A DNA stretch of 64,000 nucleotides from Candidatus Woesearchaeota archaeon (GTDB taxonomy: Archaea; Nanobdellota; Nanobdellia; Woesearchaeales; WJIZ01): NCBI GenBank assembly GCA_018303125.1, contig JAGVYS010000001.1:5886-69885 (forward strand), written 5' to 3'. Shown here piece after piece: positions 12,096 through 41,152 of the stretch. Below the pieces are notes generated by a model. It saw only the letters and a list, made by a program, of their open reading frames with translations, ran no database searches and had not been told where the DNA came from. The first letter of the stretch is position 1, and each line of letters opens with the position of its first letter. The position numbers were made by a program, and so were the translations under genes.

Positions 12096-13742
12096 TTAAT
12101 TCAAAACATCAAATAATTCTGTAAGGTTCAACTCAAATGCTGCAACAGGCATTGACAATTCCCAGTTGGATATTACTTGCGGAGATATCTCTCCAACATA
12201 TGCTACATCCTTTCCCTTGACAGATATCCTTGCAACCCTTCCGGGGATGAAGCTTGAATGATTTGTTTGATTTACAGTATACTCAATCCCGAGCATCCTC
12301 AGGAGATAATCAAATATCTGCCTTATCCTTGTATAGTCTGATATTTCATTGCATAATATGCATGCAAGCCTGTCATTCTCAATTACTCCTGTCTCTGAAT
12401 TGCCTTTCTTGAATACTGTGTTTATTGAAAATATGTTTTGCGGATACTCATTATGCTTGTTTTTCTTGAGCACATCCATGAGAGAAGGAAGTGCCCAGGC
12501 AAGCAAGACAGAATATTCCTCATTCAATGAATTGGCAAGAGGCAAAGGTGAAATATCACAATCCATGAGCTTTGACTGGCTGTCTTTGCTGGAAAGATGG
12601 TATGTCTTGCACTCAATCATGCCTATGCTGGCAAGTATCTCTGCTGCCCTTCTCTTGAAAACCTCAAACTTGTCCTCTCCTGCAATAGAATGTATCTTTG
12701 AAATCTTCTCAGGGAAGTTCTCATATCCATAAGCAATGGCAATATCGGTAGCAATGTCTGCCTGGTGGAGTATGTCAGCCCTGTAAGGGGGTATTGTTAT
12801 TTTTCCGTTGGAATAACCATGACCCATCCTGGACAATAATTCCTTTGCCTCTGATTCCTTGAGGCTAAGCCCTAGCCTTTTGTTGATATATGCAAGGTCG
12901 AGGCACATAAAAGAAGGTGAAAGGTCAGGAGAGGTTATATTCTTTCCATACATATCTATCTCAACAGAATAAACTGTTCCGCCCATGTCAGATAAGGCTG
13001 TGACTATTATGTTTAGGCATGTTGCCTGGACAGAGTAATCAAAACCAGAGCATTCAATGAAAACATCGGTTGTTGCTTCTGTTATCTTGCCTATGTCGTG
13101 CGAGTTTATGATGGGTGGCACGCTGAGCACCTTTCCTGTTGAGTCCAGGAATACAGGGAACTTCTCCATGCCATTAAGCAAATGCCCGTATTCCCTTCCT
13201 GCTGGGTGCTTTGAAAGCATCTGCATGGCGTTTATTTCTGTCGGGTATTCAAGAGGTCTGAATATTATCTCAGATGGCTTCATTGCCAGGAATCTTATCG
13301 GTGGCGTTATTCTCTCGAAGGGGTAAATGCCTACAGCTGCCTTCTTCCTGTTCCTTCCATATGTTACATGCAGCTTTTCCTGTATCTGAATTACTTCCCT
13401 TATCTTCTCGTCATCGAATTTTATGCCCTTCACTATTGCGCAGGCTGTGTATGGTCTAACGTTCTTTGCAGACTGCTCAACAATGACTTTTTGCCCTGAT
13501 TTCTTTACAGAATATTCCCTAAAGCCTTTCTTGGCTCCTATGAAACTTGCGAAAGCTCTTGCAAATCCCTGCTCCGAGAGCATGTCGGGCCTGTTTGGGA
13601 AAATCTCTACTATAATCTTATCAGCAGTTACATTCTCCAAGTCGGTTCCCAGATAGCTTATCCTATCCTTTAGCGTAGCATCATTCAGCTTCTTTCCGAC
13701 TAATTTTTCAAATGTTTTTCTGTTCAGTGTTACTGTTGGCAT
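12096..13742 (-). CDS. pheT: Phenylalanine--tRNA ligase beta subunit (archaeal type)
   Basis: B3/4 and B5 domains plus class II catalytic-like module; follows pheS. Confidence 0.9.
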   Translation of the reverse strand: MPTVTLNRKTFEKLVGKKLNDATLKDRISYLGTDLENVTADKIIVEIFPNRPDMLSEQGFARAFASFIGAKKGFREYSVKKSGQKVIVEQSAKNVRPYTACAIVKGIKFDDEKIREVIQIQEKLHVTYGRNRKKAAVGIYPFERITPPIRFLAMKPSEIIFRPLEYPTEINAMQMLSKHPAGREYGHLLNGMEKFPVFLDSTGKVLSVPPIINSHDIGKITEATTDVFIECSGFDYSVQATCLNIIVTALSDMGGTVYSVEIDMYGKNITSPDLSPSFMCLDLAYINKRLGLSLKESEAKELLSRMGHGYSNGKITIPPYRADILHQADIATDIAIAYGYENFPEKISKIHSIAGEDKFEVFKRRAAEILASIGMIECKTYHLSSKDSQSKLMDCDISPLPLANSLNEEYSVLLAWALPSLMDVLKKNKHNEYPQNIFSINTVFKKGNSETGVIENDRLACILCNEISDYTRIRQIFDYLLRMLGIEYTVNQTNHSSFIPGRVARISVKGKDVAYVGEISPQVISNWELSMPVAAFELNLTELFDVLN

Positions 13743-13743
13743 T

Positions 13744-15270
13744 TTATCGCACCCAAAACTTCATTTCCTTAGTCTGCCTGAGGTCATTTCCGTAAAGCTG
13801 CCTTATATCAGAGATGTTCCAGTATTCTGAGATTATTCTGTCGAGGCCAAGCCCCCAAGCAAGGACAGGTACTTCTTCGCCCAATAATGGAGAGGTAAGC
13901 TCTGGCCTGAATATTCCTGCTCCACCAAGCTCAATCCATTCCTTTCTTTTTGGATGCAATACCTCGACTTCGCAACTGCAATAGGTATATGGAAAGTGTG
14001 CAGGCCTTATTCTCACATCAGAGTATCCCATCTTTGTGAAGAACTCCCTTAAGTATCCTTTCAGGTTTGTGAAATTCAAATCCTTGTCTACCACAATTCC
14101 CTCGACCTGATAGAACTCGAAGAGGTGCTTGTAATCAATAGCTTCATTCCTGAATACCTTTCCTACTGAAAAAAGCTTGCATGGCATGTCAGACTTCTTT
14201 ATTCTTGATAATGCATGCGCAGATAAAACAGTTGTATGTGTCCTCAAGAGATTTTCCTTGGCGAGTTCCTCTGACCATCCCTTTCCCCATCCTTTTGACC
14301 CTGTGGAAGAGCCTGTCTCATGCACATCCTTTATCTTTTTCCAGAACAGGGGCAATTTTCCTACCTTTGGTTCCTTCAGGTAAAATGTGTCCTGCATCTG
14401 CCTGGCTGGATGGTCCTGTGGAACAAAAAGGCAATCCAAATCCCAGAAGCTAAGCTGTACCATGCTGCCTGTCATCTCCTTGAAGCCCATGTCAATCCAT
14501 ATGGATTTTATGTAATCAACAGCCTGGCTGACAAAATGCCTTTTCCCACCGCTAACTTTAGGGACATTTATTCCTACATCATATTCCCTGAATGTCTTAC
14601 CCTTCCATTGCCCTGCCCTAAGAAGAGAAGGAGTCAATCTATCCTCTGTCTGTATTGTAACCTTTACTCCCTTAAGCTCCTTGCCGAAATCAGTGAGGCT
14701 TATGGATTTTATTTTTTCCCTAGATAAGGATATTATGTCTTTCCTCTTTGCCAACTGCTCAAGTGCAAATTTTTCTTCGGGTGCTATTCCTGAGGCATCC
14801 ATGGGAAACTCTTTCTCGAGAAATGCCTCCTCAAGGCTTTTCTTTCCGATAATTTTCTTTCCGTTCTCAGATATCCTGAAAAAAGGCTCCTTTTCTTTCC
14901 TTATCTCTATTGCAGCTTTTGACCTCAGTATGCCTATGCACACATTAATCTCTTCCCTGTCCAAGCTGCTTTTTTCTGCAATCTGAGAAAGTGTCATCTC
15001 TTTTTTATCTATTGCCTCGAGAAATCTCCTTTCAGGCAAGCCATTTTCCCTGTACTTAACACCATTAGTACCCAATTGCACAACGTCTTTTTCCTTCTCG
15101 CTGATTGAAACAGCTCCCTTATTGGATAGCCACTGGATAGCCCTCATAGCCTCAACGTCAGAAATCCCTGAATTATCAGCCAATAGCCTTAAATCTATGC
15201 CGTCTGTTATGTTAGGCAATACTTTCCTCTCCAGTATATGGAGATTCTGCGCAAGCTTTTTTGCATCCAT
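13744..15270 (-). CDS. pheS: Phenylalanine--tRNA ligase alpha subunit
   Basis: Class II motifs (FRPE..., GLGLDRI) and archaeal N-terminal wH extension. Confidence 0.9.
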   Translation of the reverse strand: MDAKKLAQNLHILERKVLPNITDGIDLRLLADNSGISDVEAMRAIQWLSNKGAVSISEKEKDVVQLGTNGVKYRENGLPERRFLEAIDKKEMTLSQIAEKSSLDREEINVCIGILRSKAAIEIRKEKEPFFRISENGKKIIGKKSLEEAFLEKEFPMDASGIAPEEKFALEQLAKRKDIISLSREKIKSISLTDFGKELKGVKVTIQTEDRLTPSLLRAGQWKGKTFREYDVGINVPKVSGGKRHFVSQAVDYIKSIWIDMGFKEMTGSMVQLSFWDLDCLFVPQDHPARQMQDTFYLKEPKVGKLPLFWKKIKDVHETGSSTGSKGWGKGWSEELAKENLLRTHTTVLSAHALSRIKKSDMPCKLFSVGKVFRNEAIDYKHLFEFYQVEGIVVDKDLNFTNLKGYLREFFTKMGYSDVRIRPAHFPYTYCSCEVEVLHPKRKEWIELGGAGIFRPELTSPLLGEEVPVLAWGLGLDRIISEYWNISDIRQLYGNDLRQTKEMKFWVR

Positions 15271-26376: not shown

Positions 26377-27426
26377 TTATTTCATCCTGTACCTTAAGAT
26401 GGCTGCTATCCCTCCTATGCCTTCAAGTTTCTTTCCGCCATCATGCTCTGACGATATAATTGCTATTTTTGAATTCTGTGACTCTGAGCGCTTCATTATT
26501 GACTCAACAGCTGCAAAATTATTGTCCTGCCTCTGCTGCCTAATGAATCCGTCTGCAATCAATAGTGTTTCTACTGCCCCACTAATAGATGCCTCTTCAA
26601 CATCCTTAAGTCCATATGCTGCCTTACCGTTCTTGCTTATTTCTGACATGAGTTCTTCCACGCAGCGCATCTCTTTTGTGATGCGCTCTGATGCTAGCGC
26701 CTTCCTCACTTCATCCCTTTTCAGGATTTCATTTATTCCTGTGATGTCAACTGAAGAGCATGTTGCAGGCACTATCTTTCTCTTAAGGGGCCCTTCACCA
26801 ATTGCCTTCATTAGCTCATCTTTCCAAAAGGCAGGGCTGCCTACAACTATGAAACTTGGGTTGAATCTTGAGTCATACTCCTTTATATGCAATACAATCT
26901 CTGAGTAAAAATCTGTATATGTCCCTTCCTCATGCCCCTTTTTCCTCACTTTCCCCTTTATATTGGTCAATACTTCATAGCCATATTTCTTCATTATTGC
27001 GAAATAGGCCTCTTCCCTGTCAAATACTACAATAATGACTGGTGGCGTCTTAGATTCCAGGGAGTCTTCCAGCCTATGCTTCTGGTAACTAAGCCACTCT
27101 TTCTCTATGAATATTTCTGAACCCTGCTCAAGAATGAGAGAATGGTACTGCCCGTGTGGAATATCCTCTGGTGCTTCCTCTATTGTACCAAGGATTTTGA
27201 GTGTTGGTGGGGAAAATTCTGTCTTCTCAACAAGCACCTTTATGAAAGCAGGTTTTTTTACTGTCTTCTGCCTGTCCTCAGCCTCGCCTATTTTTACCTT
27301 TCTGGCTGTCATGCTCCCGAGCTTGTCGCCAGGCGAGATAATCTGGCTCAGGCTCCATAAATCATCCTGGCTTTCAACAATCAGCCTTGCGTTCCCCTTC
27401 CTGTAATCAAGCAAAAGTTTCTTCAT
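26377..27426 (-). CDS. pelA: Pelota/Dom34 mRNA surveillance protein
   Basis: Three-domain eRF1-like architecture; Sm-like N-domain. Confidence 0.8.
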   Translation of the reverse strand: MKKLLLDYRKGNARLIVESQDDLWSLSQIISPGDKLGSMTARKVKIGEAEDRQKTVKKPAFIKVLVEKTEFSPPTLKILGTIEEAPEDIPHGQYHSLILEQGSEIFIEKEWLSYQKHRLEDSLESKTPPVIIVVFDREEAYFAIMKKYGYEVLTNIKGKVRKKGHEEGTYTDFYSEIVLHIKEYDSRFNPSFIVVGSPAFWKDELMKAIGEGPLKRKIVPATCSSVDITGINEILKRDEVRKALASERITKEMRCVEELMSEISKNGKAAYGLKDVEEASISGAVETLLIADGFIRQQRQDNNFAAVESIMKRSESQNSKIAIISSEHDGGKKLEGIGGIAAILRYRMK

Positions 27427-27493
27427 AATGGCACAAAACAGAAAATTTATATATAAAAATATTCATTTTTCAACTCTGGAGAGGTAAACGGCA

Positions 27494-28660
27494 ATGAGAA
27501 AGTCCCAATCGGCAATGAATGCGGCAGTGCTAATAACGATTGTTTCTGCCCTGATTATCCTCTATATAATACTGCTCCCTTCAGACAAAAGGCTGGAGCT
27601 TATAGGTGAAAACCGCTCATCATCCGAAACAGGCACAGAAGGGAAGATTCTTGTTGAGGACAAGGAAATAGTGATGGAGCACTTCAACGACGACAGCAAG
27701 GACTATGATAAAATTCCTTCTGTTAACCTCTACACAAAAAAAAGCTCTAAAGAGATATTCGAAGACAGCTCAGTTTATGTCAAAACATCTGTATTTGGAA
27801 AGGAAACAAAGGAGATTCCATTCAGTGTTGATGATGTGGATAATACAGATAATCTGCTTCTTTCATTTTTTGTAAAGAAGCATAGTGGCAGGCTCATGGT
27901 TTCTGTAAATGAGAGAGAAGTTTTCAATAATTATATAGAAAGCATAAACGTAGAGCCTATAAGCATACCTAATAGCATCCTGGCAAAGAGCAATATACTA
28001 AAACTTGAGGCTTCTGGGGTAGGCTTTGCATTCTGGGCAAAGAATGAGTATCTGCTTGAGGAGATTAAGATAACTGCCGACATAACAGATGTTTCTGCAA
28101 GGGGCTCAGAGGTTACTTTTAATGTTCCAAAATCAGAGATAAGCAACATTGACAAAGCAACACTTAGGTTTGTCCCTGAGTGCCAAGAGGGAAAGGTAGG
28201 CATACTTGAAGTTAGCATAAACGGAAAAGGAGTATTCTCTGGTGTGCCTGATTGTGGCATACCCAGGCCTTTGAGTTTTGCCCCTGAGCTTCTTGTTTCT
28301 GGGCCAAATAAGATATCCTTCCATAGCGATGAGGGTAGGTACCTTATAGACCAAATAAAGGTTACAACAGATTTTGACGAGCCGCCATCCTATACTTATT
28401 TCTTTGATGTTGACAATGCCTTGCTTAAGGATATAAACAGCAAAAAGAAAGTAGTCAATCTTACAATGTTCTTTGTGGATGATGAAGAAGACAAAGAAGC
28501 GGAGATTTTCATAAATGATAGAAAAACATTCATGAGAAGGCATAATGACTTCGAGTTCAGCAGAAACATAGGTGAATTCCTTGAAGTAGGGTCTAACTCC
28601 CTAAAAGTCGTGCCTGAGAGAAGGATGGAAGTCAGGAAGCTGGTTGTAAGGGCTGAATAG
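27494..28660 (+). CDS. Signal-anchored extracytoplasmic protein with three internal ~90-aa repeats (hypothetical)
   Basis: N-terminal hydrophobic anchor (AAVLITIVSALIILYIILL); repeat pattern L.F.V...V.N.R..F...G.N.LK recurs three times. Confidence 0.55.
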   Translation: MRKSQSAMNAAVLITIVSALIILYIILLPSDKRLELIGENRSSSETGTEGKILVEDKEIVMEHFNDDSKDYDKIPSVNLYTKKSSKEIFEDSSVYVKTSVFGKETKEIPFSVDDVDNTDNLLLSFFVKKHSGRLMVSVNEREVFNNYIESINVEPISIPNSILAKSNILKLEASGVGFAFWAKNEYLLEEIKITADITDVSARGSEVTFNVPKSEISNIDKATLRFVPECQEGKVGILEVSINGKGVFSGVPDCGIPRPLSFAPELLVSGPNKISFHSDEGRYLIDQIKVTTDFDEPPSYTYFFDVDNALLKDINSKKKVVNLTMFFVDDEEDKEAEIFINDRKTFMRRHNDFEFSRNIGEFLEVGSNSLKVVPERRMEVRKLVVRAE

Positions 28661-28766
28661 AGTTCTTTGAGTTGCGAAGATATATTTTTAAACATATATT
28701 GTTTTAGTCAACCTGCCTGATTCCAGGAGGTTTACAGGATAGGCTGCAATAAAAGAGGTTCAATTA

Positions 28767-31400
28767 ATGGTTTTCAAATGGATTAATAACAAACTGGGTG
28801 CTGGTAAAGCTAGGTTTGATAGTTCTGCGCCGGTGGTATGGACAAAGGACAAAGTAGATAGGACAAGGTCTACGATAGGCTCAGAGAGTGCCGAGGCAGA
28901 CAAGTTCAGGTCAAAAGGTGCCTTAACAACTATGCTAATTTTGGCCCTTTTAATAAATTATATTCTGGAAGGGTTCATTCCTGCATTCAGGTTTTCTGGC
29001 TTCGAGTTAAGTTTTTTCATCGGGACAATAGTCTACGGCGATTGGGTCGGAATATACAACCTTTTCCATTTCAACATTTTCTTCCTTCTTGTTGCATTTG
29101 CGGTATTCAATCTGAGAAACGGGAAGCCCCATATTCTCAGAGTATGGCTCGGTCTAATACTTATTGCTTACTTGCTTAGCTCAATACCCATACTCAACAC
29201 CTATATGGGCATAAGGAATTTTATTGAATTAATCATGCTGATAATTTCTGCCATTTACCTTTCCTTCAGTGAGACAACAAAAGAGGATTTCATATCTACT
29301 ATTGTTGTTATGTGGGCTTTCTACAACATTTTCTTCTTCGGCATTACTAGCACTATAGGAGGCCTGACTCATTTCATATTCATCATCCTTTTCTTCATAA
29401 TTTTCTGCATGGGAAACCACTTTGCAGAAGATAGGACTCAGATAAAATGGTGGCTCATAATACTAATCCTGTTTGATTTTTTCCTTCCGCAAATTCTTAA
29501 GGCGGCTTATCCTACTATACCTGTTGACTCCCTGCCATGGCTTACTTTCGGAATGGTAATATTTGGTAATGTCTACAAGCCGTATTGGTTCCCGAGATTT
29601 TTGCTTATAGCGCTGGTTGCATTCTATTTCCTGCAATATGCTTTCGCAGGCAATGATACATTTGCCCAGATAATTGGCCAGAGGGGTGCAGACCAGGAAA
29701 ACATAGCTGAGAGAATGAAGTTCCTAAACCCGAAAGAATGGTTAAACAGGATAACTCAGTGGACAAATCAATCTGTATATTATGCCTCAGGTCAAAACTA
29801 TTATGCGGGAAGGGTGGATGAGAACGCGAAGAAAGACCTTGGAGTGTTTATAGAGGGGATGGACCGTAACGATAAGATATTTTACGACAATGAAAGGATA
29901 ATAATCGATGCAAACCTAAAGGCCCAGAACTTCGTATCTGAAGAGGACGTTGGCTTTGAATCTCTCACCATACAGCTGGATTGCTGGGCGCAACAAAATG
30001 GGAAAAATTTCGCCCATGGAAAGATTTATCCGAAAAACAAGTATGAGATTGACGCATTTGATACTGAGAGCATACAGTGCATATTCGATCCATGGCAGCT
30101 CCAGCTTGGCTCATATGATATAATTATAGAGGCAACATTTAACTTCCAGACTCAGACATACCTCAAAAGATATTTTGTAAATACCCTGCTTTTAGACTCC
30201 CTCAAAAGTAAAAAAGTAATTGAAAAAGACTCAGACATATTGAAACTGAACAAGATAAGTGATACTATGCCTTCTGCAAAGAACAGCGCAGGTCCAGTGG
30301 AAATACGCGTGTCTGATCAGGTTCCAAGCATAATAGAGCTTAGCAATGAGATTGACACAAAGCAGATATTTGGCGTGCAGATTGCCAACAGATGGAGAGG
30401 CGAAATAAAGAGGATAAAGGGATTTGAGTTTTACCTACCGGACGGCATATATCTTGATGAAGGATACTGCACATTTGCTATGGGTATCGATGCTATAAGC
30501 GACAGCAGGTTTGAGGGCTACATCAAATACTCGCTCCAGGAAAAGAACAACATCAGGCTGAGAAACATAAAGAAGGAAATTGTACAGAGATGCTCGCTTG
30601 CCATGAAAAAAGGAGACATTGAAAAAGTCCTTGGGCCTGAGGATGTTACCACAAGGTATATACAATTGAAGACTGATTATGACTACCTTATGAAGGAAAG
30701 CGTAGGAATAACAGTTGCAGAGCCTCCTGGCGTAAACATGAAGATTTTCTCGCCTGACAGGGGCGCTATAGATTCAGGCAGCATGCCACTATGCAAGATA
30801 ACCTATGACAAAAAGGAGTCATTTATCCTATGGCTCCTTGGCGCAGCAGGAGTTGGCCTTAAGAACACTGTTGTTTTCGAGCTTTATGCTGGTGACAGTC
30901 TTGTAGAGCCTATGGTGCAGGAGCAATGTACCGAGGCAAGGTGCGAGCACTTTTACGAAAAAACGTTCCCTAAAGGCACAAAATTGAGATGCAAGGCAAC
31001 AGTGGATACTTCCAGATTTGATGAGCCTGCAGAGTGGCAGGAGCCAGAGGCTTACGTCATTGTGAAAAACAGCGCCCCAGTTGTTAAAAGCGTAGACTAT
31101 CTGAGGGATGCAAATTATGGTCTTACAACGAGAGAGTATGTCAAAGGTGACATTGCCATCTGTTCTGCAAGCGTTGAGGACAGAGATAATGATGAAATAA
31201 TTGCAGAGTTCAGCTTCGAGGGCTTTGATGTTGCCCCGACGACAAAGGAGTGCAGGGGCAACTGCTTCGTTGAAATCCCCACAGGAAGTGCACAAAAGGC
31301 AACAGCTATGACCTGCAAAGTAAGGGTTTTCGACGGAGAGGATTATAGCAAAGAAGTATCAACCAATGCGAATCTGGTTATGTTAGGTGCATCACCTTGA
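28767..31400 (+). CDS. Large polytopic membrane protein (about 8-9 TM in residues ~50-330) with a ~550-aa Cys-rich C-terminal ectodomain (hypothetical)
   Basis: Hydrophobic-helix pattern in the N-terminal third; many Cys in the C-terminal domain; no family recognised. Confidence 0.55.
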   Translation: MVFKWINNKLGAGKARFDSSAPVVWTKDKVDRTRSTIGSESAEADKFRSKGALTTMLILALLINYILEGFIPAFRFSGFELSFFIGTIVYGDWVGIYNLFHFNIFFLLVAFAVFNLRNGKPHILRVWLGLILIAYLLSSIPILNTYMGIRNFIELIMLIISAIYLSFSETTKEDFISTIVVMWAFYNIFFFGITSTIGGLTHFIFIILFFIIFCMGNHFAEDRTQIKWWLIILILFDFFLPQILKAAYPTIPVDSLPWLTFGMVIFGNVYKPYWFPRFLLIALVAFYFLQYAFAGNDTFAQIIGQRGADQENIAERMKFLNPKEWLNRITQWTNQSVYYASGQNYYAGRVDENAKKDLGVFIEGMDRNDKIFYDNERIIIDANLKAQNFVSEEDVGFESLTIQLDCWAQQNGKNFAHGKIYPKNKYEIDAFDTESIQCIFDPWQLQLGSYDIIIEATFNFQTQTYLKRYFVNTLLLDSLKSKKVIEKDSDILKLNKISDTMPSAKNSAGPVEIRVSDQVPSIIELSNEIDTKQIFGVQIANRWRGEIKRIKGFEFYLPDGIYLDEGYCTFAMGIDAISDSRFEGYIKYSLQEKNNIRLRNIKKEIVQRCSLAMKKGDIEKVLGPEDVTTRYIQLKTDYDYLMKESVGITVAEPPGVNMKIFSPDRGAIDSGSMPLCKITYDKKESFILWLLGAAGVGLKNTVVFELYAGDSLVEPMVQEQCTEARCEHFYEKTFPKGTKLRCKATVDTSRFDEPAEWQEPEAYVIVKNSAPVVKSVDYLRDANYGLTTREYVKGDIAICSASVEDRDNDEIIAEFSFEGFDVAPTTKECRGNCFVEIPTGSAQKATAMTCKVRVFDGEDYSKEVSTNANLVMLGASP

Positions 31401-32365
31401 AAAAGTTCTATTTGCTAATAATTGCAGTCATGCTAGTTTCAGCATGCCGGGGCTCAGGAGAGGGTTCTTTGGATGATAAGCTTCAGACAGGGATAGATGG
31501 GCTTACATTGAAATTCCTAAAAAATGGCGTTCCTGAGGTTATAGAAGGAAACAGGCTAAGCATGGCTCTTGAGATAAGGAACGAGGGTTTCAGCTACATT
31601 GAGGATTCCCTTCTTGTCCTATATACAGAGAAGGATGTCCTTAAACTAGAGAAATGGGATTTGCCTGGAAGGCTAAGGGTAAACAGCGACAACAGCCTTT
31701 CGTTTAACTTAAGGGGAAAGACTCTTGCCAATAGAAAGGGAGAGTTCGAGTTGCCAAGCTTCACTGTCAAGGCTGAAAAGATTGATGAATCAAGGAATAA
31801 GATTGAATCAATGGTGGGAATAAACGCCTGCTACAGGTATTATACTATATTCTCTGAGAGCCTCTGCATAGATACAGACCCATTTGGCAGGAAAATTGCA
31901 AGCAAGAGCTGCAAAGCAAAGGACATAAGCTCCTCAAGCCAAGGCGCTCCTGTAGCTATAACTAAAGTGGAGCAGAGCATATTCCCTGCTGAAACTCCAG
32001 ACTCCGCAATAATAGAATTGAATATATATATAGAGAATAAGGGCAAAGGCATTTTGATTGACCCTGAAAAGTATAAGGATGCCTGCCTCGGAAAAGGCCA
32101 AGGATTTAATTCTATATTGCTTACCAAGTTGAAGTTTTCATGGTATGAATACAATTATGAGGGCTTGTCTGATTTTGAATGCTCTCCCAACCCAATTGAG
32201 CAGAGAAAAAAGGAGTACGTTGTAAGGTGCAGGCTGAAGGAAGAAAGTGCAATCCCCTCTGAAACACTGACATTTGAAACTCCTCTCCTTATTGAGCTTT
32301 ATTATGGATATAAGATATCTGATTCCATAAGAATTGATGTGCTTAATGATGAAAGAAGCAACTAA
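31397..32365 (+). CDS. Putative lipoprotein, paralog A of a three-member family
   Basis: Signal peptide plus lipobox-like VSAC; motifs CYRYYT...LCID and SQGAPVAITKVE shared with the next two genes; TTG start overlaps the stop of the upstream gene. Confidence 0.55.
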   Translation: MKKFYLLIIAVMLVSACRGSGEGSLDDKLQTGIDGLTLKFLKNGVPEVIEGNRLSMALEIRNEGFSYIEDSLLVLYTEKDVLKLEKWDLPGRLRVNSDNSLSFNLRGKTLANRKGEFELPSFTVKAEKIDESRNKIESMVGINACYRYYTIFSESLCIDTDPFGRKIASKSCKAKDISSSSQGAPVAITKVEQSIFPAETPDSAIIELNIYIENKGKGILIDPEKYKDACLGKGQGFNSILLTKLKFSWYEYNYEGLSDFECSPNPIEQRKKEYVVRCRLKEESAIPSETLTFETPLLIELYYGYKISDSIRIDVLNDERSN

Positions 32366-32409
32366 GCGTAGAAAATTTTAAATAGGATGTTTCAGGGTAT
32401 TATGCTAAT

Positions 32410-33360
32410 ATGAGATTCCGCGTCATTTTGGCTATCCTTCTTATATCGCTTACCGTAATATCGTGCAGTCCTAACAGGAACAGAGAGGGGGAAAGGATAT
32501 CTGATAGAGATTATAGGCAAGGCACCAAGGGGCTTGAGCTGGAGTTTATGAGGAATGCTCCGCCGGATAGGGTATACTCTGGAGATGACATGAACTTAAT
32601 TGTTGAGATAAGAAACCTAGGTGCATACCCGACAACAGATTCATTCGATGGAAGATTAGAGGTTTATGGCTATGATGAAAAAGTCTTCCAAGGTGAAAGA
32701 TGGAATGGCGGCCCATTTATCTCGCCTACCTTGCAGGGAAGAAGCCAGTTTTCACCAGAAGGTGGTAGGGAAAACAAGGAGTTCCATGTTGATAAGGTAA
32801 CTACTCCCTTTGGTTCAGAAGCTTTCAAGCAAAGGATAATAGTTGCAGCATGCTACAAGTACAAGACAATAGCACAGCCGTTGGTGTGTATAGACCCTGA
32901 ACCACAGTCTGTTTTTGATGAAAGCAAGGTATGCACAGTAGACAGGAATGGAAAGACTTATGCCCTTGGAAGCCAAGGTGCGCCTGTGGCAGTTACAAGG
33001 GTAGAGGAAGAGATAAGTAGCAGCAACATCCATTTCAGCATAGAAATAAAGAATGTTGGAAGAGGCAAGGTTGTTGATGAGAACGTTAGGAAAGAATGCC
33101 CGCTTGGCCTTGATTTTAATGACGTTGACAGGGTTATGGCCTCAGTTAAGCTTCCCTATGATTCTTCTCCAAAATGCCAGCCAAAGGGGGATTATACTGA
33201 CCCTATAAGGCTGGATGAAAGCGGAAGAGGAACTATATTTTGTACATTCAAGAAGCCGCCATCCAAATCAGCCTTTGAGACGGTTCTGCAGATAACGCTT
33301 GATTATAGGTATGTTGACGAAGTATATAAGGACATTGAAGTCATAAACATTGATAGGTAG
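32410..33360 (+). CDS. Putative lipoprotein, paralog B
   Basis: Signal peptide plus VISC; CYKYKT...VCID, SQGAPVAVTRVE. Confidence 0.55.
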   Translation: MRFRVILAILLISLTVISCSPNRNREGERISDRDYRQGTKGLELEFMRNAPPDRVYSGDDMNLIVEIRNLGAYPTTDSFDGRLEVYGYDEKVFQGERWNGGPFISPTLQGRSQFSPEGGRENKEFHVDKVTTPFGSEAFKQRIIVAACYKYKTIAQPLVCIDPEPQSVFDESKVCTVDRNGKTYALGSQGAPVAVTRVEEEISSSNIHFSIEIKNVGRGKVVDENVRKECPLGLDFNDVDRVMASVKLPYDSSPKCQPKGDYTDPIRLDESGRGTIFCTFKKPPSKSAFETVLQITLDYRYVDEVYKDIEVINIDR

Positions 33361-33443
33361 GACCCTTTAAGCAAGATTATTCTGGTTAAATTATCATGGG
33401 ATAGAAGTAAGGTTTATATATTAAGAGATTATAAAGTAGCAAA

Positions 33444-34388
33444 ATGAGAAAAATCCTGATAGTGCTTCTTTTTGTATCGCTTGTCATGACTGCCTGTGAT
33501 GGAAAAGGGCCTAAGGGAAGCATAGAAAATCCTTGGATAGGCGGAACAAAAGGAGTCATTGTTTCTTTTGAGGAGAATGCTCCACAAGCAGAGGTTTTTG
33601 ATGGTGGTAATTACCCGTTTGGTGTTGTAACCAAGCTAAAGAACGAAGGAGAGTATGAGGTTCAAAAAGAGGACGTAAAAGTCACAATATCGGGAATACT
33701 CGCGCAGGAATTCGGAAGGGTTGAAAGCGACCTTGTAAAAGGTCCTGATGATTTACTGCCTGCAAAAAGGAAGGATTCTGAAGGACGGGCAGAGGACTCT
33801 GACCCCGTATTCGTGGATTTTGGTGATTTTACATTTGAGTCAAGCATTGTGGCACAGAATACTTACACTTTAAGGGCAGATGTATGCTATAAGTACCAGA
33901 CAACAGCAAACTCGCTCATATGCGTCCTAAAAGATAACTTAAAGGACAATGATGCAGTCTGTGCAGTAAATGAGCCAAAGGCTGTCTTCAATTCTGGTGC
34001 TCCAGTACAAATTTCTGATTTCAGAGAGTCTGCAAGAGGCAAAAACAAGATTGCGTTCACATTTATAGTCTCACACAAGGGAGCGGGCAAGATATTCAAG
34101 ATGGATTCAGGTTGCAACGTCACATCAAGAGACTTTGAGGACAGAGTTTTTGTGGACGTTTCAACAGGAATAGAAGGCAAGCTTGAGTGCACAGGACTCA
34201 AGGAAAGCACGATGACCAATGGTTCTGTCTCGGGTTTCCTCACATTGTTCTCGAGCCAGAAGGCAGTAAGCTGTTCGCAGGAAGTCTCTACCAATTCTGA
34301 TTACCAAAAGCCTGCAACAATAAAGGCAACATATGATTATTCTGATAATATAGTAACAGAAGTATTGGTAAAACACCAGCTTAATTAG
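33444..34388 (+). CDS. Putative lipoprotein, paralog C
   Basis: Signal peptide plus MTAC; CYKYQT...ICV, SGAPVQISDF. Confidence 0.55.
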   Translation: MRKILIVLLFVSLVMTACDGKGPKGSIENPWIGGTKGVIVSFEENAPQAEVFDGGNYPFGVVTKLKNEGEYEVQKEDVKVTISGILAQEFGRVESDLVKGPDDLLPAKRKDSEGRAEDSDPVFVDFGDFTFESSIVAQNTYTLRADVCYKYQTTANSLICVLKDNLKDNDAVCAVNEPKAVFNSGAPVQISDFRESARGKNKIAFTFIVSHKGAGKIFKMDSGCNVTSRDFEDRVFVDVSTGIEGKLECTGLKESTMTNGSVSGFLTLFSSQKAVSCSQEVSTNSDYQKPATIKATYDYSDNIVTEVLVKHQLN

Positions 34389-35340
34389 CTTTTCCTAAAA
34401 GTGCAGCTTGGGCAAGGAAGGCTTCAAGTTGTATGAATTCATCACTACCCTCACTCATCCTGAATTCTGTTTCTCCACACTTGCTTATAAGCTCCATCTT
34501 TGCCCTTGGAGACAAATCAAGGCTTATTATTTCCTTTTGCATCTGCTTTATGACATCAATTCCTGCAAGTCCATGAGAGAGCATTGTGTCCAGAAGCTTG
34601 CTTCTTGCATCTATAAACTTGCTAGAAACAGCAAGCTCAAGTATCTCCTTTATGTCCTTTGGCCTTGCTGCAGAAGAAAGGGAGTAGACAGTTTCCTCTG
34701 ATATGTTCTTGCCGAGTGCTGCGCTTGCCTGGAGAATGTTCTCTAGCTTCCTGCAGTCTCCCCCGGAAAAATCAACCAGCGCTTCCTTGGCCTTCTCGCT
34801 TATTGTAAGGTGCTCTGAATGAGTTACTGTTTCTATTATCTTAATGATGTCCTGCTTATCCAGGGGCTTGAACCTGAATACGCTGCATCTTGATTGCAAT
34901 GGCTCTATAATCTTGCTTGAATAGTTGCAGGAGAGTACGAACCTGCAGGTAGAAGTAAAATTCTCCATTGTCCTCCTTAAGGCCTGTTGTGCCTCCCTTG
35001 TGAGGGCATCGCACTCATCAAGAAAGATTATCTTGAAAGGCACATCGCCTATGGCCTTTGTCCTGGCAAAATCCTTCACCTTGACCCTTATGACATCTAT
35101 GCCTCTTTCATCAGAAGCATTAAGCTCCAGGAAGTTCTGGTGCCATGAATCAGAGAAAAGCTGTTTTGCTATAACAATAGCCATTGAGCTTTTTCCTGTT
35201 CCGGGAGGGCCTGCAAATAGCAGGTGAGGCATGTTTTTGCTCTCAACAAAGGACTTAACCCTGGCCACAATCTCTTTCTGCCCCTTAATTTCATTGAAAT
35301 TCTTTGGCCTGTATTTCTCTATCCAGATTGCGTGCTCCAT
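34381..35340 (-). CDS. rfcS: Replication factor C small subunit (clamp loader), intein-free
   Basis: WIEKYRP..., Walker A GPPGTGKS, Walker B DECD, SRC motif. Confidence 0.92.
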   Translation of the reverse strand: MEHAIWIEKYRPKNFNEIKGQKEIVARVKSFVESKNMPHLLFAGPPGTGKSSMAIVIAKQLFSDSWHQNFLELNASDERGIDVIRVKVKDFARTKAIGDVPFKIIFLDECDALTREAQQALRRTMENFTSTCRFVLSCNYSSKIIEPLQSRCSVFRFKPLDKQDIIKIIETVTHSEHLTISEKAKEALVDFSGGDCRKLENILQASAALGKNISEETVYSLSSAARPKDIKEILELAVSSKFIDARSKLLDTMLSHGLAGIDVIKQMQKEIISLDLSPRAKMELISKCGETEFRMSEGSDEFIQLEAFLAQAALLGKAN

Positions 35341-35780: not shown

Positions 35781-37064
35781 ATGGACACCAAAGAAAGGCT
35801 TGCTTTGATTTCCCAGGTAGGAGAAGAGATAGTTACAAAAGACGACCTTGTAAAAATTCTGGATAAAAAACAAAATCCCATTGCTTATGACGGCTTTGAG
35901 CCTTCTGGCAAGAATATACACATAGCTCAGGGCCTACTTCGGGCAATAAACATCAACAAGATGACAAAGGCGGGGTGCAGGTTCAAGATTCTCATCGCGG
36001 ATTGGCATGCATGGGCTAATAACAAGATGAATGGCAACCTTGAGCACATACAGAAGGTTGGGGAGTACCTTATTGAGGTCTGGAGGGCCTGTGATATGGA
36101 CTTGAAGAACGTGGAGTTTGTTTGGGCATCTGACCTTGTGAAGGACAACAATTATTGGAAGGAAGTAATGCAAATAGCCAGGATTTCAACTGTGAAAAGA
36201 ATACAGAGGTGCTCACAGATAATGGGCAGGAAAGAAGGAGATGCGCAACAGGCTTCCCAGATTCTCTATCCTTGCATGCAGGCTGCTGATATCTTCTATC
36301 TTGGGGCAGACATCTGCCAGCTTGGCATGGACCAGAGAAAAGTTAATGTTTTGGCAAGGGAGGTATCGAAGAAGCTTGGTCATGCCGAACCAGTCATAGT
36401 ATCTCATCATATGCTAAGCGGCTTGCAAGGCCCACTTCCAAAAATAGAGGGAATAGAAACCCTATCAGATAAAATTCCGCTTGGAAAAGACATGCAAAAG
36501 ATTCTCAAGGATACAGGCATATTGATTAGCCAGCATTACCCATCATTATTGGGTGTTTTCAGGGCAATTGAAACTGATTTAGAGACTGCCAAAACCGGAA
36601 GCATGGATAAGATAAACCAAGCGGTGAAATCAATTAAGGAACTAAAAGAGAAATATTTCGAGGAAAGGCAGATTGGGCTTAAGATGTCAAAATCAAAGCC
36701 AGATACTGCAATTTTCATGAATGACAATCTGGAGAGCATAGAAAAAAAGCTCAGGAAGGCATATTGCCCTGAAGGCATAGTTGATGATAATCCGGTGCTT
36801 GAATATTGCAATTACATAATTTTTGAAAGATTCAAAAAGTTCAAGGTAGAAAGGTCTGAAAAATGGGGAGGCCCGATTGAGTTCAGCTCTTACATTGAGC
36901 TTAAAGATGCATTCAAAAAAAAGGAAGTCCATCCCATGGACCTAAAGGCCTCTGTTGTAAAGCACCTGCATATGCTGCTGGTGCCTGTGCAGGACAGGCT
37001 AAGCAAAAACAAGAAAGCAAAGCAGCTTGAAAAGGAAATTGAACCCTTCATTGTCACAAGCTAG
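35781..37064 (+). CDS. tyrS: Tyrosine--tRNA ligase (archaeal/eukaryal type) with a ~85-aa insertion before KMSKS and a HIAQ variant of the HIGH motif
   Basis: AYDGFEPSGK.IHIAQG, LYPCMQAADIFYLGADICQLGMDQRKVNVLARE, KMSKS and KAYCPEG align with M. jannaschii TyrRS. Confidence 0.8.
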   Translation: MDTKERLALISQVGEEIVTKDDLVKILDKKQNPIAYDGFEPSGKNIHIAQGLLRAININKMTKAGCRFKILIADWHAWANNKMNGNLEHIQKVGEYLIEVWRACDMDLKNVEFVWASDLVKDNNYWKEVMQIARISTVKRIQRCSQIMGRKEGDAQQASQILYPCMQAADIFYLGADICQLGMDQRKVNVLAREVSKKLGHAEPVIVSHHMLSGLQGPLPKIEGIETLSDKIPLGKDMQKILKDTGILISQHYPSLLGVFRAIETDLETAKTGSMDKINQAVKSIKELKEKYFEERQIGLKMSKSKPDTAIFMNDNLESIEKKLRKAYCPEGIVDDNPVLEYCNYIIFERFKKFKVERSEKWGGPIEFSSYIELKDAFKKKEVHPMDLKASVVKHLHMLLVPVQDRLSKNKKAKQLEKEIEPFIVTS

Positions 37065-38319: not shown

Positions 38320-39390
38320 ATGAACATAGCCATGCTTAAGGGATTTCTAATTCGAAAAAAAATAGAGGCTGCGTTATTTTGTTGCCTTGATTCAGAAATT
38401 GAGAGTAAGAGCATGTCATATTTTTCAGGTTATAATGGGATTGGGTGCCTCATAGTTCCGCGAAGTAATGAGCCTTTCCTTGTAGTGCCTAAAATGGAAT
38501 TTGAAAAGGCAAAGAAATCTGGAAAAGCTTATCTCTGGAAAAAAGGAGAGGGGCTATTTGAAACTGCTGTCAGGATAATGAAGGTGAAAAAGGCACCTAT
38601 GGGGGTTCTTGGACTGGAATGTAGAAATCTCAGCTTTTCTGCTTACAAATTAATTAAAAAATATGTCAAGTGCAGAATAAAGGATATAAGCCAAGATTGC
38701 CTTGCTATAAGGTCAATAAAAAAAGAAGATGAAATAGCCAAGATAAGGATTGCATGCAAAATAGCAGATAAGATATTAATGAGATGCGTAAACTCATTCC
38801 GCTCATTTGGCACAGAAGCAGATGTAGAAAAATTCCTTCATCTGGAAACAGTAAAGAGGGGTTGCAAGCTAGCTTTCAGGCCTATAGTTGCATCTGGAAA
38901 GAACTCTAGCATGCCACACTATGAACCTGCAAACACAAAAATATCTAAGGGTTTCTGTGTAATTGATTTTGGTGTTGAATACGAGGGGTATAATTCAGAC
39001 ATAACTAGGACAATATACTTGGGCAACCCTTCAAGTAAGGAGCAAGAAATCTATAATGCGGTTCTACGTGCAGAGGAAGAGGCAATTAAATCAATAAAAG
39101 TAGGTAACAAATGTTGTCATGCTAATGAAATCGCCTGCAGTGAGCTGGGGAAGCATGCAAAAAGGTTTATCCATGGCCTTGGGCACGGTATAGGATTAAA
39201 CGTTCACGAGCTGCCTAGCATCTCATCAAAATCTGCAGACATATTTGAAGACAGTATAGTATTCACAATAGAACCAGGAGTTTATTTTCCTGGTAAATTT
39301 GGAATTAGGATTGAAGACGATATACTACTTAGAAATGGAAAAGTTGAAATACTGACTAATTCGCCAAGAAACCTAATTGCAAAAGGGTAA
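38320..39390 (+). CDS. M24-family Xaa-Pro peptidase
   Basis: HGLGHGIGLNVHE and IEPGVY pita-bread fold motifs. Confidence 0.8.
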   Translation: MNIAMLKGFLIRKKIEAALFCCLDSEIESKSMSYFSGYNGIGCLIVPRSNEPFLVVPKMEFEKAKKSGKAYLWKKGEGLFETAVRIMKVKKAPMGVLGLECRNLSFSAYKLIKKYVKCRIKDISQDCLAIRSIKKEDEIAKIRIACKIADKILMRCVNSFRSFGTEADVEKFLHLETVKRGCKLAFRPIVASGKNSSMPHYEPANTKISKGFCVIDFGVEYEGYNSDITRTIYLGNPSSKEQEIYNAVLRAEEEAIKSIKVGNKCCHANEIACSELGKHAKRFIHGLGHGIGLNVHELPSISSKSADIFEDSIVFTIEPGVYFPGKFGIRIEDDILLRNGKVEILTNSPRNLIAKG

Positions 39391-39391
39391 A

Positions 39392-41152
39392 ATGGAAAAA
39401 TATAACCTTAAAAGATTCTCAAAAAGCGTCAGCAGATACAAGAGGATACTTGGAGATATAAGGGGAAAGAGCATTTTAGTGGTTCTTGATGTATCCCAAA
39501 AGGAAGCTTTCTACTCTGTTGCGCCACTATCAAGGGCAGTGCATGAAAAGGGAGCCGATATGCACGTGTATGTCATAGGAAGCTCATCTTCCAGTTTGGA
39601 CGTTCTCAAGAGTGTTTGGACAACATACAGCGAGATGAAATCCGGACTTAAGAGCAAAAAGGGATCTGCATTGAGAGATTTCATTAGCAAGGCAGACAAA
39701 AAATGCAATGGTGCCATAGAAGGTATTTTCAGACACCCTGAAAAGTTCGTAAAAGCAAGGGGAAAAGGGTTCGAAGGTTCTTTTAGTCTTCCATATGACA
39801 TCTCCTGGATGAAAGAATATAAGAAAAAGGAACTGCTTAAAACATGCAAAATAATCTGGAAACAAGTCTATAACTTGCAGAATAATGAAAAAGTGGGCAT
39901 AAACTTTGAGCTTGTAGGTTCTGTCTTAGGTTTGCCTATAGAAGACTATCTTGATTCTTTCCAGATAAGCTACAATATGATGCTTTCTGTTAAGTCACAA
40001 GTCACAGGGATGAGCAGCTCCACGCCTCGCAAATCGCAGCTTGATGCTCCTGAGAGGATTTCAGAGCTTAAGGCAACTTTGCTTGGGTGCGAACTTTCAA
40101 AGGGTTCAAAAGAGCCAATCTTTGCCAGTTTCAAAAAGCTTTCTAGTCTGCTAAGCATAAGCAAGATGACAATCTCAAGTGCTGTATTCGGGATACACGG
40201 TAAGGGTTATCCTGGAAAGCATTATTTCGGGGAATGTGTTGGCTACCCATCTCCAAATGGAAAGACAAGGTGGGAAACACCTGGCCAGATGGTATACAAG
40301 CTTGATTTTTATCCGCAAACTGCCCTTGACCCTAGGAAGCCCAGAGCTAGGATAGCATTCACGGAAACAGTCCCTATAGACATTTTCATAAAAACATGCA
40401 AAATAGACTGGCTTAAAATGAAAGAAAGAGATGACAGCATAATCAGGCTGGCTGATAAGTGCCAGTACATCATTGTCGAAGGCAAGAAGTTTGGAAAATA
40501 CAGGACAAGTCTCAAAGTATGGCTGGAAGACAAGGGAAAAAGGTACAGGTTCAGGGGTTCTGATGTTGAGACTAGGAACCTGATAAGCCCGCACTATCCT
40601 AATAAAAAAATAGTTGCAGGCACAATGGCCAATATACCTGGAGGAGAGGCTTTTACCACTCCAAAATATGTCAAGGGACAGTTTATAGGGGATGTTGTGA
40701 TAAGCCTTGACCAGAGTTATAAGCTCAATGCTAAAGATCCTTTTGTCATAAACTGCTATGGTAACCGCTATAAGGTAATAAGGGAACCTAAAATCATTGG
40801 GATGAAATTCAAGGAAAAGAAAAAGCAGGCATGGAAAAGGATATTGAACCAGGAAAAAAACAAGGCAGTGCCAATGAGCATTGTTAATCTTCAGAAAGAA
40901 AACTTTAATAACATAGGCGAATTCGCGATAAATACGAATCCAAAAGCAGAACTATGCAATTACCTCATTGTTAACGAGAAGATAGCAAACATGATTCATA
41001 TTGCGCTTGGTTCTGGTTTTGAAGCTGAACGCTCAACAACATACCATACTGATATTGTCATAGATGCGCCACGTCAGCAGTTGGACATATACGGTGTAGA
41101 TAATAATGGGAAAAAGTACTGGATACACAAGAAAGGCAAGTTTGTTATTTAA
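39392..41152 (+). CDS. M29-like aminopeptidase paralog with a long N-terminal extension
   Basis: C-terminal half shares NIPGGEAFTTP / IHIALGSGF / YHTDIVID with the downstream M29-like gene; ATG at 39392 follows the stop of the M24 gene. Confidence 0.45.
   Translation: MEKYNLKRFSKSVSRYKRILGDIRGKSILVVLDVSQKEAFYSVAPLSRAVHEKGADMHVYVIGSSSSSLDVLKSVWTTYSEMKSGLKSKKGSALRDFISKADKKCNGAIEGIFRHPEKFVKARGKGFEGSFSLPYDISWMKEYKKKELLKTCKIIWKQVYNLQNNEKVGINFELVGSVLGLPIEDYLDSFQISYNMMLSVKSQVTGMSSSTPRKSQLDAPERISELKATLLGCELSKGSKEPIFASFKKLSSLLSISKMTISSAVFGIHGKGYPGKHYFGECVGYPSPNGKTRWETPGQMVYKLDFYPQTALDPRKPRARIAFTETVPIDIFIKTCKIDWLKMKERDDSIIRLADKCQYIIVEGKKFGKYRTSLKVWLEDKGKRYRFRGSDVETRNLISPHYPNKKIVAGTMANIPGGEAFTTPKYVKGQFIGDVVISLDQSYKLNAKDPFVINCYGNRYKVIREPKIIGMKFKEKKKQAWKRILNQEKNKAVPMSIVNLQKENFNNIGEFAINTNPKAELCNYLIVNEKIANMIHIALGSGFEAERSTTYHTDIVIDAPRQQLDIYGVDNNGKKYWIHKKGKFVI

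Follow-up and report, generated by a model that had tools for sequence, protein, structure and literature searches.

Little is known of how DPANN archaea attach to partner cells and which partners they choose; for the Woesearchaeota, we know of no cultured member and of no identified host. Among the closest described systems are enzymes that cut bacterial cell walls. In one survey (PMC12352652), peptidoglycan hydrolases are called 'particularly prominent' in Nanoarchaeota; the survey covered only proteins with a recognised wall-binding domain, and a known signal peptide was present in only 32% of the archaeal homologues. In another study (PMC9723730), 'large lytic murein transglycosylase' genes were reported from Woesearchaeota metagenome-assembled genomes (MAGs) and interpreted as signs that these archaea attack bacteria, in a lifestyle proposed to be predatory or 'vampiristic'. 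A membrane scaffold, a two-domain core, partner genes or a conserved locus are not mentioned in the searched passages of either paper. Here we describe a cluster of five genes (g1 to g5, positions 27494-34388) in a 64,000-nucleotide (nt) stretch of a Candidatus Woesearchaeota archaeon (contig JAGVYS010000001.1, positions 5,886 to 69,885; hereafter the window), whose central protein, the polytopic membrane protein g2, has relatives that carry such hydrolases.

A sequence-only reading of the window had taken these genes for a dedicated cell-surface module of proteins without a recognisable family. We found all five open reading frames (ORFs) on the + strand at the expected coordinates in the ORF listing of the window, and g1-g5 had no significant match in Pfam, NCBIfam or PHROGs. 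In agreement with that reading, all five proteins have export or anchor signals and predicted beta-sandwich or jelly-roll ectodomains, and their genes are co-inherited in a fixed order; signal peptides and transmembrane (TM) helices are present, and no oligosaccharyltransferase or ABC substrate-binding match was found. No described counterpart of the module was found in the databases and literature searched. Beyond the sequence-only reading, we found a class III-like signal on g1, a g2 core in which the lipoprotein fold probably occurs a fourth time, order-wide synteny, and hydrolases on g2 orthologues. Our preferred explanation, to which we give a probability of roughly 0.45, is that the module is a heteromeric surface platform with a lineage-variable tip directed towards partner-cell envelopes, mainly bacterial walls.

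The outer end of g2 is exchangeable

An exhaustive search with a g2 family profile returned 1905 cluster representatives at E <= 1e-3, 430 of them at E <= 1e-30. The region common to these relatives comprises the last membrane helices and the ectodomain core (profile positions ~170-675). We then scanned against Pfam, in two batches, the 117 mid-length proteins (560-1150 aa) among the best 150 of the 1905 representatives, and found SLT (16), NlpC/P60 (3), Amidase_2 (2), Amidase_3 (1), Peptidase_M23 (2) and glucosaminidase (2) domains, as well as one weaker M15 match. The 26 peptidoglycan-hydrolase matches amount to about one in five of the 117 relatives, which is an upper bound as some proteins may carry two. 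All seven proteins that were checked singly were above the Pfam cut-offs. The only other recurrent domains were fn3, PKD and Pur_ac_phosph_N beta-sandwiches, with isolated matches in one member each (e.g. DUF4112).

In every hydrolase-bearing relative mapped, the hydrolase lies C-terminal to the core. Hence, by its position, the hydrolase is extracellular. We traced three of these proteins to their contigs, and all three lie inside the same module as positional orthologues of g2; two of them are named Ca. Woesearchaeota by NCBI. In one locus (L015), pelota and a g1-like gene are accompanied by a g2-like gene of 911 aa with NlpC/P60 (by Pfam) and then by g3-like and g4-like genes, and an SLT-like stretch in the same g2-like protein was seen by local iterative search only. 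The second locus (L016) has the same layout with SLT on g2, and in the third (L017) a g2 with NlpC/P60 is followed by a g3-like gene. In the window, g2 has no peptidoglycan-hydrolase domain by Pfam (nothing at E <= 1). Hence, the g2 C-terminus is a swappable module, Ig/PKD-like (Ig, immunoglobulin) here and a hydrolase in relatives.

Since g2 relatives have recruited, at one and the same position, peptidoglycan-cleaving enzymes of six classes, the bacterial cell wall is the simplest target; we know of no archaea that make peptidoglycan.

The C-terminal domain of g2 also occurs in giant proteins of 2000-3600 aa (P0180, P0185, P0192, P0199, P0204 and others), in 10-32 copies. The repeated domain (profile positions ~735-812) is PKD-like by Pfam, and this C-terminal repeat is all that the giant proteins have in common with g2.

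The five genes are inherited together in a fixed order

The order g1-g2-g3-g4-g5 recurs at nine or more distinct loci of other metagenomes and MAGs (L001-L004, L007, L009-L012 and L014). A partial module is present at L008, L015 and L016, where contig ends cut the loci, and the cluster is reduced in L017; in L013 and L017 the synteny with pelota and RFC is lost. In the orthologous loci, a g1-like gene of ~390 aa and a g2-like gene of 570-1148 aa are followed by three genes of ~290-440 aa, and pelota and RFC flank the module almost always; the sequence-only reading had pointed out this setting among core informational genes in the window. Each gene is the best match of its positional counterpart, and for the lipoprotein slots this holds even at ~30% identity. 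Hence, the recurrence is far beyond chance. Because the three lipoprotein slots still match by position at this distance, their triplication is ancient and the copies are not interchangeable, and an ancient triplication held in fixed order argues for non-redundant subunits.

Gene order, flanks and the overlap of g2 with g3 persist down to ~25-30% identity. This overlap of a TTG start with the preceding stop, already remarked on from the window sequence, is seen there and in five orthologous loci (L001 10520/10523, L003 8178/8181, L010 8088/8091, L008 9926/9929 and L015 11733/11736), and it may couple the translation of the two genes.

Within the close clade, identity is 61-71% for g4, 47-62% for g5, 49-59% for g1, 35-49% for g3 and 28-46% for g2, compared with 71-74% for the flanking RFC and 48-56% for pelota. 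By these values, the module proteins evolve slowly for surface proteins, a constraint unusual for free adhesins; the slow evolution of g4 and g1 fits many fixed protein-protein contacts. The gene orders and identities together indicate that the module is a co-inherited syntenic core feature of a DPANN order (Woesearchaeota-type, Nanoarchaeota in GTDB).

The same conservation is what one would expect if the module built or organised the archaeon's own envelope, be it as S-layer, as the anchor of one or as a stalk complex of a pseudo-periplasm, with the g2 tip as displayed cargo and without a role in partner recognition. Known archaeal S-layers are membrane-anchored beta-sandwich arrays; the module is core, syntenic and vertically inherited among informational genes in every Woesearchaeal locus examined, and g4, g5 and g1 show about the same slow evolution as the flanking RFC and pelota. 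However, the S-layer likeness that we found is a generic one between Ig arrays (csg, 7ptp: E 1.9e-9 but TM-score 0.11-0.12), and the module has five anchored subunits as against the one or two proteins reported for S-layers (PMC5744192). Above all, a housekeeping scaffold gives no account of why the domains on g2 relatives that are not beta-sandwiches are almost exclusively peptidoglycan hydrolases, from six enzyme families. We consider such a scaffold unlikely, yet a competitor of some weight, and the 'S-layer-associated' option of the sequence-only reading is neither supported nor excluded by these results.

In one locus (L001, positions 13545-14417), a 290-aa membrane protein with DUF6159, DUF7544 and a weak GPDPase_memb match is encoded between the g5 orthologue and RFC. 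This insertion is absent from the window and from the other loci.

g2 joins a polytopic membrane domain to a beta-sandwich ectodomain

The description of g2 as an 877-aa polytopic protein with a large Cys-rich ectodomain held up. In its AlphaFold2 (AF2) model (mean predicted local distance difference test score (pLDDT) 72, and 80-90 for most of the ectodomain), a disordered, variable cytoplasmic N-terminus is followed by about nine helices, a helical linker and an all-beta ectodomain from residue 360; by hydropathy, the hydrophobic segments span residues 49-296. Twelve of the 13 Cys lie after residue 400. The invariant residues of a 59-sequence family alignment (G359, C406, C438, G545, C568 and Y638) are all in the ectodomain core, and C609 is kept in at least 90% of the sequences. 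In comparison, conservation of the polar residues H202, D222 and D237 in the membrane domain is limited to 33-38 of the 59 relatives. Hence, the membrane domain fits an anchor or scaffold better than catalysis. The g2 family alignment had only marginal matches, to antibody light chains (Ig), among the sequences of the PDB.

This pattern bears on whether the module makes or exports a glycan, with the g2 membrane domain as a Wzy/EpsG-like or GT-C-like polymerase or transferase, g1 guiding the polymer in a BcsB-like manner and the lipoproteins as an extracytoplasmic conduit. About nine TM helices and partly conserved polar residues (H202, D222, D237 and P257-x-W) would suit such an enzyme, weak BcsB matches occur in three g1 family members (E 0.0038; other members match domains of carbohydrate-binding module (CBM) type), and peptidoglycan hydrolases often accompany bacterial envelope-spanning machines. 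One g2 relative, P0211 (MBW2989477.1), is named 'EpsG family protein' at NCBI. However, the EpsG models of Pfam and NCBIfam matched neither P0211 nor eight other g2 relatives at E <= 1, and P0211 probably owes this name to an older or a borderline annotation. Partly kept polar residues in the membrane next to an invariant ectodomain are the opposite of what a catalytic membrane domain should show, and sugar-nucleotide or glycosyltransferase genes are not consistently adjacent to the module, with a GT2 near the cluster in L002 only. Nor did the membrane domain match AglB/STT3 oligosaccharyltransferases or other GT-C proteins by profile or structure, and its conserved half alone had no match among PDB sequences. 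Hence, we regard a glycan machine as improbable.

The layout of class II fusogens (fusexin/HAP2), with a three-domain ectodomain bearing fusion loops and then a C-terminal membrane anchor, is not seen in the module.

The g2 ORF is identical over 97% of its length to the hypothetical protein J4401_00240 of a Ca. Woesearchaeota MAG at NCBI. The public annotation of the identical protein has 855 aa, 22 residues fewer than the longest ORF (start at 28767). As the N-terminal 45 residues are unconserved and are modelled with very low confidence, the true start of g2 is uncertain.

Three lipoproteins are paralogous and probably share their fold with the g2 core

g3, g4 and g5 had been called tandem paralogous lipoproteins, and we reached the same result. 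They match one another by BLASTP (g3-g4 6e-25, g4-g5 7.5e-14, g3-g5 1.5e-4), and their signal peptides end in the lipobox-like motifs VSAC17, VISC19 and MTAC18, as called by motif reading and alignment. The motif [LIVTAS]x[GAS]C closes the signal peptide in g3-g5 and in all ~50 full-length relatives, and the lipobox Cys (C19) is invariant in a 56-sequence family alignment; each of the three proteins has six further Cys. From the lipobox, all three are predicted to be lipidated and their signals cleaved. The AF2 model of g4 (pLDDT 91) consists of a signal helix, a linker and two beta-sandwich domains, and the g4 family alignment had no match among PDB sequences.

We found that the lipoprotein family and the g2 ectodomain core align over their full length (g4 41-316, g2 359-656). 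When the first ten g2 sequences were used, the comparison to the lipoprotein family was not significant (E 0.23); with a 134-sequence alignment of the g2 core, hhalign gave P 0.003 over 241 collinear columns. Several motifs coincide between lipoproteins and g2 core (YxYxT/FxFxT, QGAPV/SxGPV, NxGxG/NxWxG, two Cys and YxY), and the independent AF2 models of g2 and g4 are collinear in strand order, with two unusually long strands at equivalent positions. The alignments and models together suggest that the g2 ectodomain core is a probable fourth paralogue of g3-g5.

Lipid-anchored proteins encoded beside a polytopic membrane protein are also the arrangement of binding-protein-dependent transporters, and g3-g5 could on that ground be substrate-binding proteins that feed a permease, g2. 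However, no ABC ATPase or other energising component was found in any locus examined, no transporter family was matched, and the g4 model consists of two beta-sandwiches and not of the bilobed alpha/beta fold of substrate-binding proteins. We hold solute uptake to be very improbable. Of the roles suggested in the sequence-only reading, uptake thus falls away for want of an ATPase, a permease signature and an alpha/beta fold, and adhesin comes closest, though it is incomplete.

g1 has a prepilin-like anchor and three repeats of possible carbohydrate-binding type

g1 was expected to be a signal-anchored triple-repeat protein, and its hydropathy and profile self-alignment agree: a single hydrophobic helix lies at the N-terminus, and a one-repeat offset brings the three repeats of ~95 aa into alignment with one another (175 columns, E 3.9e-12). 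We found 96 homologues, and the named ones are nearly all from Woesearchaeota or Nanoarchaeota MAGs.

The N-terminus of the family is stereotyped ([KR][KR][GA]-Q-[ST]-G..AA.LVAIIA.LIILYILFLPP). Immediately before the helix, [KR][GAS]Q is present in 50 of the 61 scorable family members, with A (26), G (22) or S (2) at -1, so that the K-S-Q of the window g1 is a minority variant. A short basic N-terminus, a [KR][GA]-type motif and a ~20-residue hydrophobic helix fit the layout of archaeal class III signals; Q at +1 is typical of EppA-type pilins (FlaFind/EppA literature), and Sulfolobus sugar-binding proteins carry class III signals. Hence, the g1 N-terminus looks like a class III (type IV prepilin-like) signal, the alternative being an uncleaved signal anchor.

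With this signal and repeats that look carbohydrate-binding, g1 might act like a pilin, undergo cleavage by a prepilin peptidase and build, on a base of g2-g5, a short surface fibre or sugar-binding 'bindosome' related to type IV pili. However, we found no assembly ATPase, polytopic platform (PilB/PilC or FlaI/FlaJ type) or prepilin peptidase in the cluster or in the larger window ORFs scanned, the cluster of no locus holds such an ATPase or platform, and g2 was unlike a platform protein in any search. Cleavage of g1 is a prediction only, and Ser at -1 is the rarer residue. We therefore think a structure of this kind quite unlikely.

The carbohydrate-binding resemblance of the repeats is weak but consistent. 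A profile of 30 stacked g1 repeats had as its best match among PDB sequences the CBM35 of Xyn30D (E 1e-3), followed by a GH2 (GH, glycoside hydrolase) sugar-binding domain (0.03), sialidase B (0.06), a GH26 mannanase (0.09) and another CBM, and most of the 20 other weak matches were glycosidase or carbohydrate-binding-module chains. The g1 family alignment gave marginal GH26 matches. Sub-threshold Pfam matches in the family were CBM-like (1e-4), Glyco_hydro_2_N (8e-5), GH2_N2 and BcsB, in 3-4 of 62 members each; the window g1 itself had none of these. The repeats may be jelly rolls of the CBM35 or GH2 sugar-binding type.

Homology of g1 to g2 or to g3-g5 was rejected (hhalign E 0.36 and 0.07 over 15-30 columns).

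A subgroup of g1 relatives is longer, with 549-581 aa (P0132, P0135, P0139, P0140, P0145, P0162 and P0163). In addition, a longer g1-like gene (560 aa; L013, 9001-10683) stands alone beside a ribosomal-protein operon, with g2-g5 not adjoining. From this lone gene, the module is either not universal or split in some lineages.

A proposed surface platform with a variable tip

In the explanation that we favour, g2 would be the integral-membrane base, and its membrane domain may do more than anchor it. On the external side of the membrane, the g2 core and its probable homologues g3, g4 and g5 would form a fixed hetero-oligomer in the shape of a stalk or ring, and g1, held by its prepilin-like helix, would contribute glycan binding through three lectin-like jelly-roll repeats. 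Distal to the core, g2 would bear the exchangeable end that meets the envelope of the other cell. In this genome, the tip of two Cys-rich Ig/PKD-like domains would bind without lysing; in hydrolase-bearing lineages, the platform would open the bacterial wall locally.

Several points weigh against this explanation. The window g2 lacks a hydrolase, and a bacterial-wall target is extrapolated from ~20% of the relatives. The slow evolution of g1, g4 and g5 suits a housekeeping role in the envelope at least as well, as host recognition, unlike these proteins, usually evolves fast. The flanking pelota and RFC genes share the synteny, which makes co-location within the order weak evidence of functional linkage, and in L013 a g1-like gene occurs by itself. 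Nine helices exceed the needs of an anchor. Binding of the five proteins to one another is a prediction; the carbohydrate-binding assignment of g1 is weak, with its best match below threshold, and the kinship of the g2 core with the lipoproteins comes down to a pairwise P value, an HHalign probability of 10%, and collinear motifs and secondary structure.

Gene layout and surroundings

The coordinates of the cluster and its parts are given in Table 1.

Table 1. Features of the module and its flanks (window positions; residues are those of the respective protein)
Feature	Position	Strand	Description
pelota	26377-27426	-	Flank of the cluster (Pfam labels taken on orthologous flanks)
g1	27494..28660	+	388 aa; prepilin-like N-terminal anchor and three jelly-roll-like repeats
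g1 N-terminus MRKSQSAMNAAVLITIVSALIILYIILLP	27494..27580	+	Basic stretch, K-S-Q motif and 20-residue hydrophobic helix (hydropathy)
g1 repeat 1, residues 102-200	27797..28093	+	Profile self-alignment
g1 repeat 2, residues 201-293	28094..28372	+	Profile self-alignment; holds the invariant Cys230/Cys254 pair
g1 repeat 3, residues 294-388	28373..28657	+	Profile self-alignment
g2	28767..31400	+	877 aa; polytopic membrane protein with predicted multi-beta-sandwich ectodomain
g2 membrane domain, residues ~45-305	28899..29681	+	About nine helices (predicted)
g2 ectodomain core, residues 359-656	29841..30734	+	Two predicted beta-sandwich domains; four (near-)invariant Cys
g2 variable C-terminal module, residues 657-877	30735..31397	+	Two Cys-rich Ig/PKD-like domains in this genome
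g2/g3 overlap	31397..31400	+	4 nt (TTGA): g3 TTG start over g2 TGA stop
g3	31397..32365	+	322 aa, TTG start; lipobox protein (Cys17), first of three paralogues
g4	32410..33360	+	316 aa; lipobox protein (Cys19); best conserved of the five
g5	33444..34388	+	314 aa; lipobox protein (Cys18), third paralogue
RFC small subunit	34381-35340	-	Flank of the cluster

The wider window is housekeeping in content, with SecY, PheRS, an MCM with an intein, the PolD large subunit, a MatE transporter and an AAA ATPase. Its GC content is even (38-45%), the cluster is not a compositional island, and an Rfam scan of the window found no RNA families. A mobile-element or viral origin of the cluster was rejected, as the GC content is flat, the housekeeping synteny strict and PHROG matches are lacking.

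By eye, a TTTAWATA-like AT-rich box lies ~30-50 nt 5' of the start in each gap of the cluster (27427-27493, 28661-28766, 32366-32409 and 33361-33443), and purine-rich GGAGG or GAGGT motifs precede g1 and g2. With these boxes in the gaps and g2/g3 as the only overlap, g1, g2, g4 and g5 may have archaeal promoters of their own.

Three further ORFs of the window are of note. The TyrRS gene (35781-37064, +) encodes 427 aa, compared with 353-359 aa in syntenic relatives, and has an insertion of ~68 residues just before the KMSKS motif in a global alignment with the L001 orthologue. The MCM helicase gene (53784-57197, +; 1137 aa) holds a LAGLIDADG intein inside the MCM P-loop domain (Intein_splicing at residues 337-793, LAGLIDADG_3 at 572-657). 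A 591-aa ORF without a Pfam match (39377-41152, +) has a counterpart of equal size, likewise without a Pfam match, after an M24 peptidase in L002, L003 and L009; its recurrence indicates a further conserved Woesearchaeal protein without an assigned family.

Meaning of the module

In our searches, none of the g1-g5 proteins falls into a described family, and the combination of parts appears to be new as a system with a proposed function. The folds themselves are predicted to be common beta-sandwiches. With the module, the known set of archaeal envelope proteins would grow by four or five new families, among them, for DPANN, apparent lipoproteins and a protein with a class III signal. The window copy represents a non-lytic variant, and the case as a whole rests on comparative genomics and predicted structures.

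A more specific and more tentative proposal sees in the module an order-wide cell-contact machine of Woesearchaeota that has not been described before. A polytopic base, three homologous lipoproteins and a prepilin-anchored lectin would make up this hetero-oligomeric membrane platform, and its exchangeable tip would determine which partner is met and what follows: in some lineages binding, in others an enzymatic breach of bacterial peptidoglycan. We rate the proposal as rather doubtful. If it were true, the module would be a first candidate, in DPANN archaea, for the molecular apparatus by which an archaeon attaches to a bacterium or preys on it, and it would explain how the many DPANN peptidoglycan hydrolases that lack a signal peptide get outside. 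Even as a housekeeping scaffold, the module would remain a candidate for a core structure of the envelope in a major order of uncultured archaea.

Because the central protein carries hydrolases at a swappable outer tip, speculation about these enzymes would become a testable hypothesis with defined parts. The locus between pelota and RFC serves as a marker for comparing lineages, and the type of tip (Ig/PKD or lytic enzyme) may predict lifestyle or host type.

Comparison with known systems

Parts of the module resemble several known systems. With class III signal proteins (type IV pilin-like proteins and the Sulfolobus bindosome), g1 shares the basic N-terminus, [KR][GA/S]Q and a ~20-residue helix, and, as in the bindosome, the helix is followed by putative carbohydrate-binding domains. 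Unlike those proteins, g1 has 388 aa in three domains and no accompanying assembly genes, and its processing is predicted only.

Archaeal lipobox lipoproteins are established, and the first enzymes of their biogenesis, AliA and AliB, are known only from Haloferax (volcanii) (PMC13631571); we found no lipidation studies in DPANN archaea in the literature searched. g3-g5 share with such lipoproteins a signal peptide that ends in [LIVTAS]x[GAS]C, and their mature parts belong to no described lipoprotein family. The g2 ectodomain and g4 have a membrane-anchored chain of beta-sandwiches in common with the Haloferax S-layer protein csg, with intimin/invasin and with lipoproteins of the alpha-2-macroglobulin type.

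In its logic, g2 is analogous to CdiA, Rhs proteins and phage tail fibres, which likewise combine a conserved N-terminal part for delivery or anchoring with a C-terminal domain that varies between lineages and is often lytic. g2 is unrelated to them in sequence and structure, and we saw neither an immunity gene nor a secretion system or toxin-type domain.

Close to the module in the literature are the GH23 transglycosylases of Woesearchaeota. The two reports (PMC9723730; PMC12352652) scored only the catalytic domain, and the window g2 has no hydrolase domain. The reported enzymes are 'large' and come from Woesearchaeota MAGs, and the SLT-bearing g2 relatives are likewise long (690-1084 aa) membrane proteins from such MAGs. 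Hence, the SLT-bearing g2 relatives are very likely the same kind of gene as the reported transglycosylases, and the two have the same proposed biology, an attack on bacterial walls.

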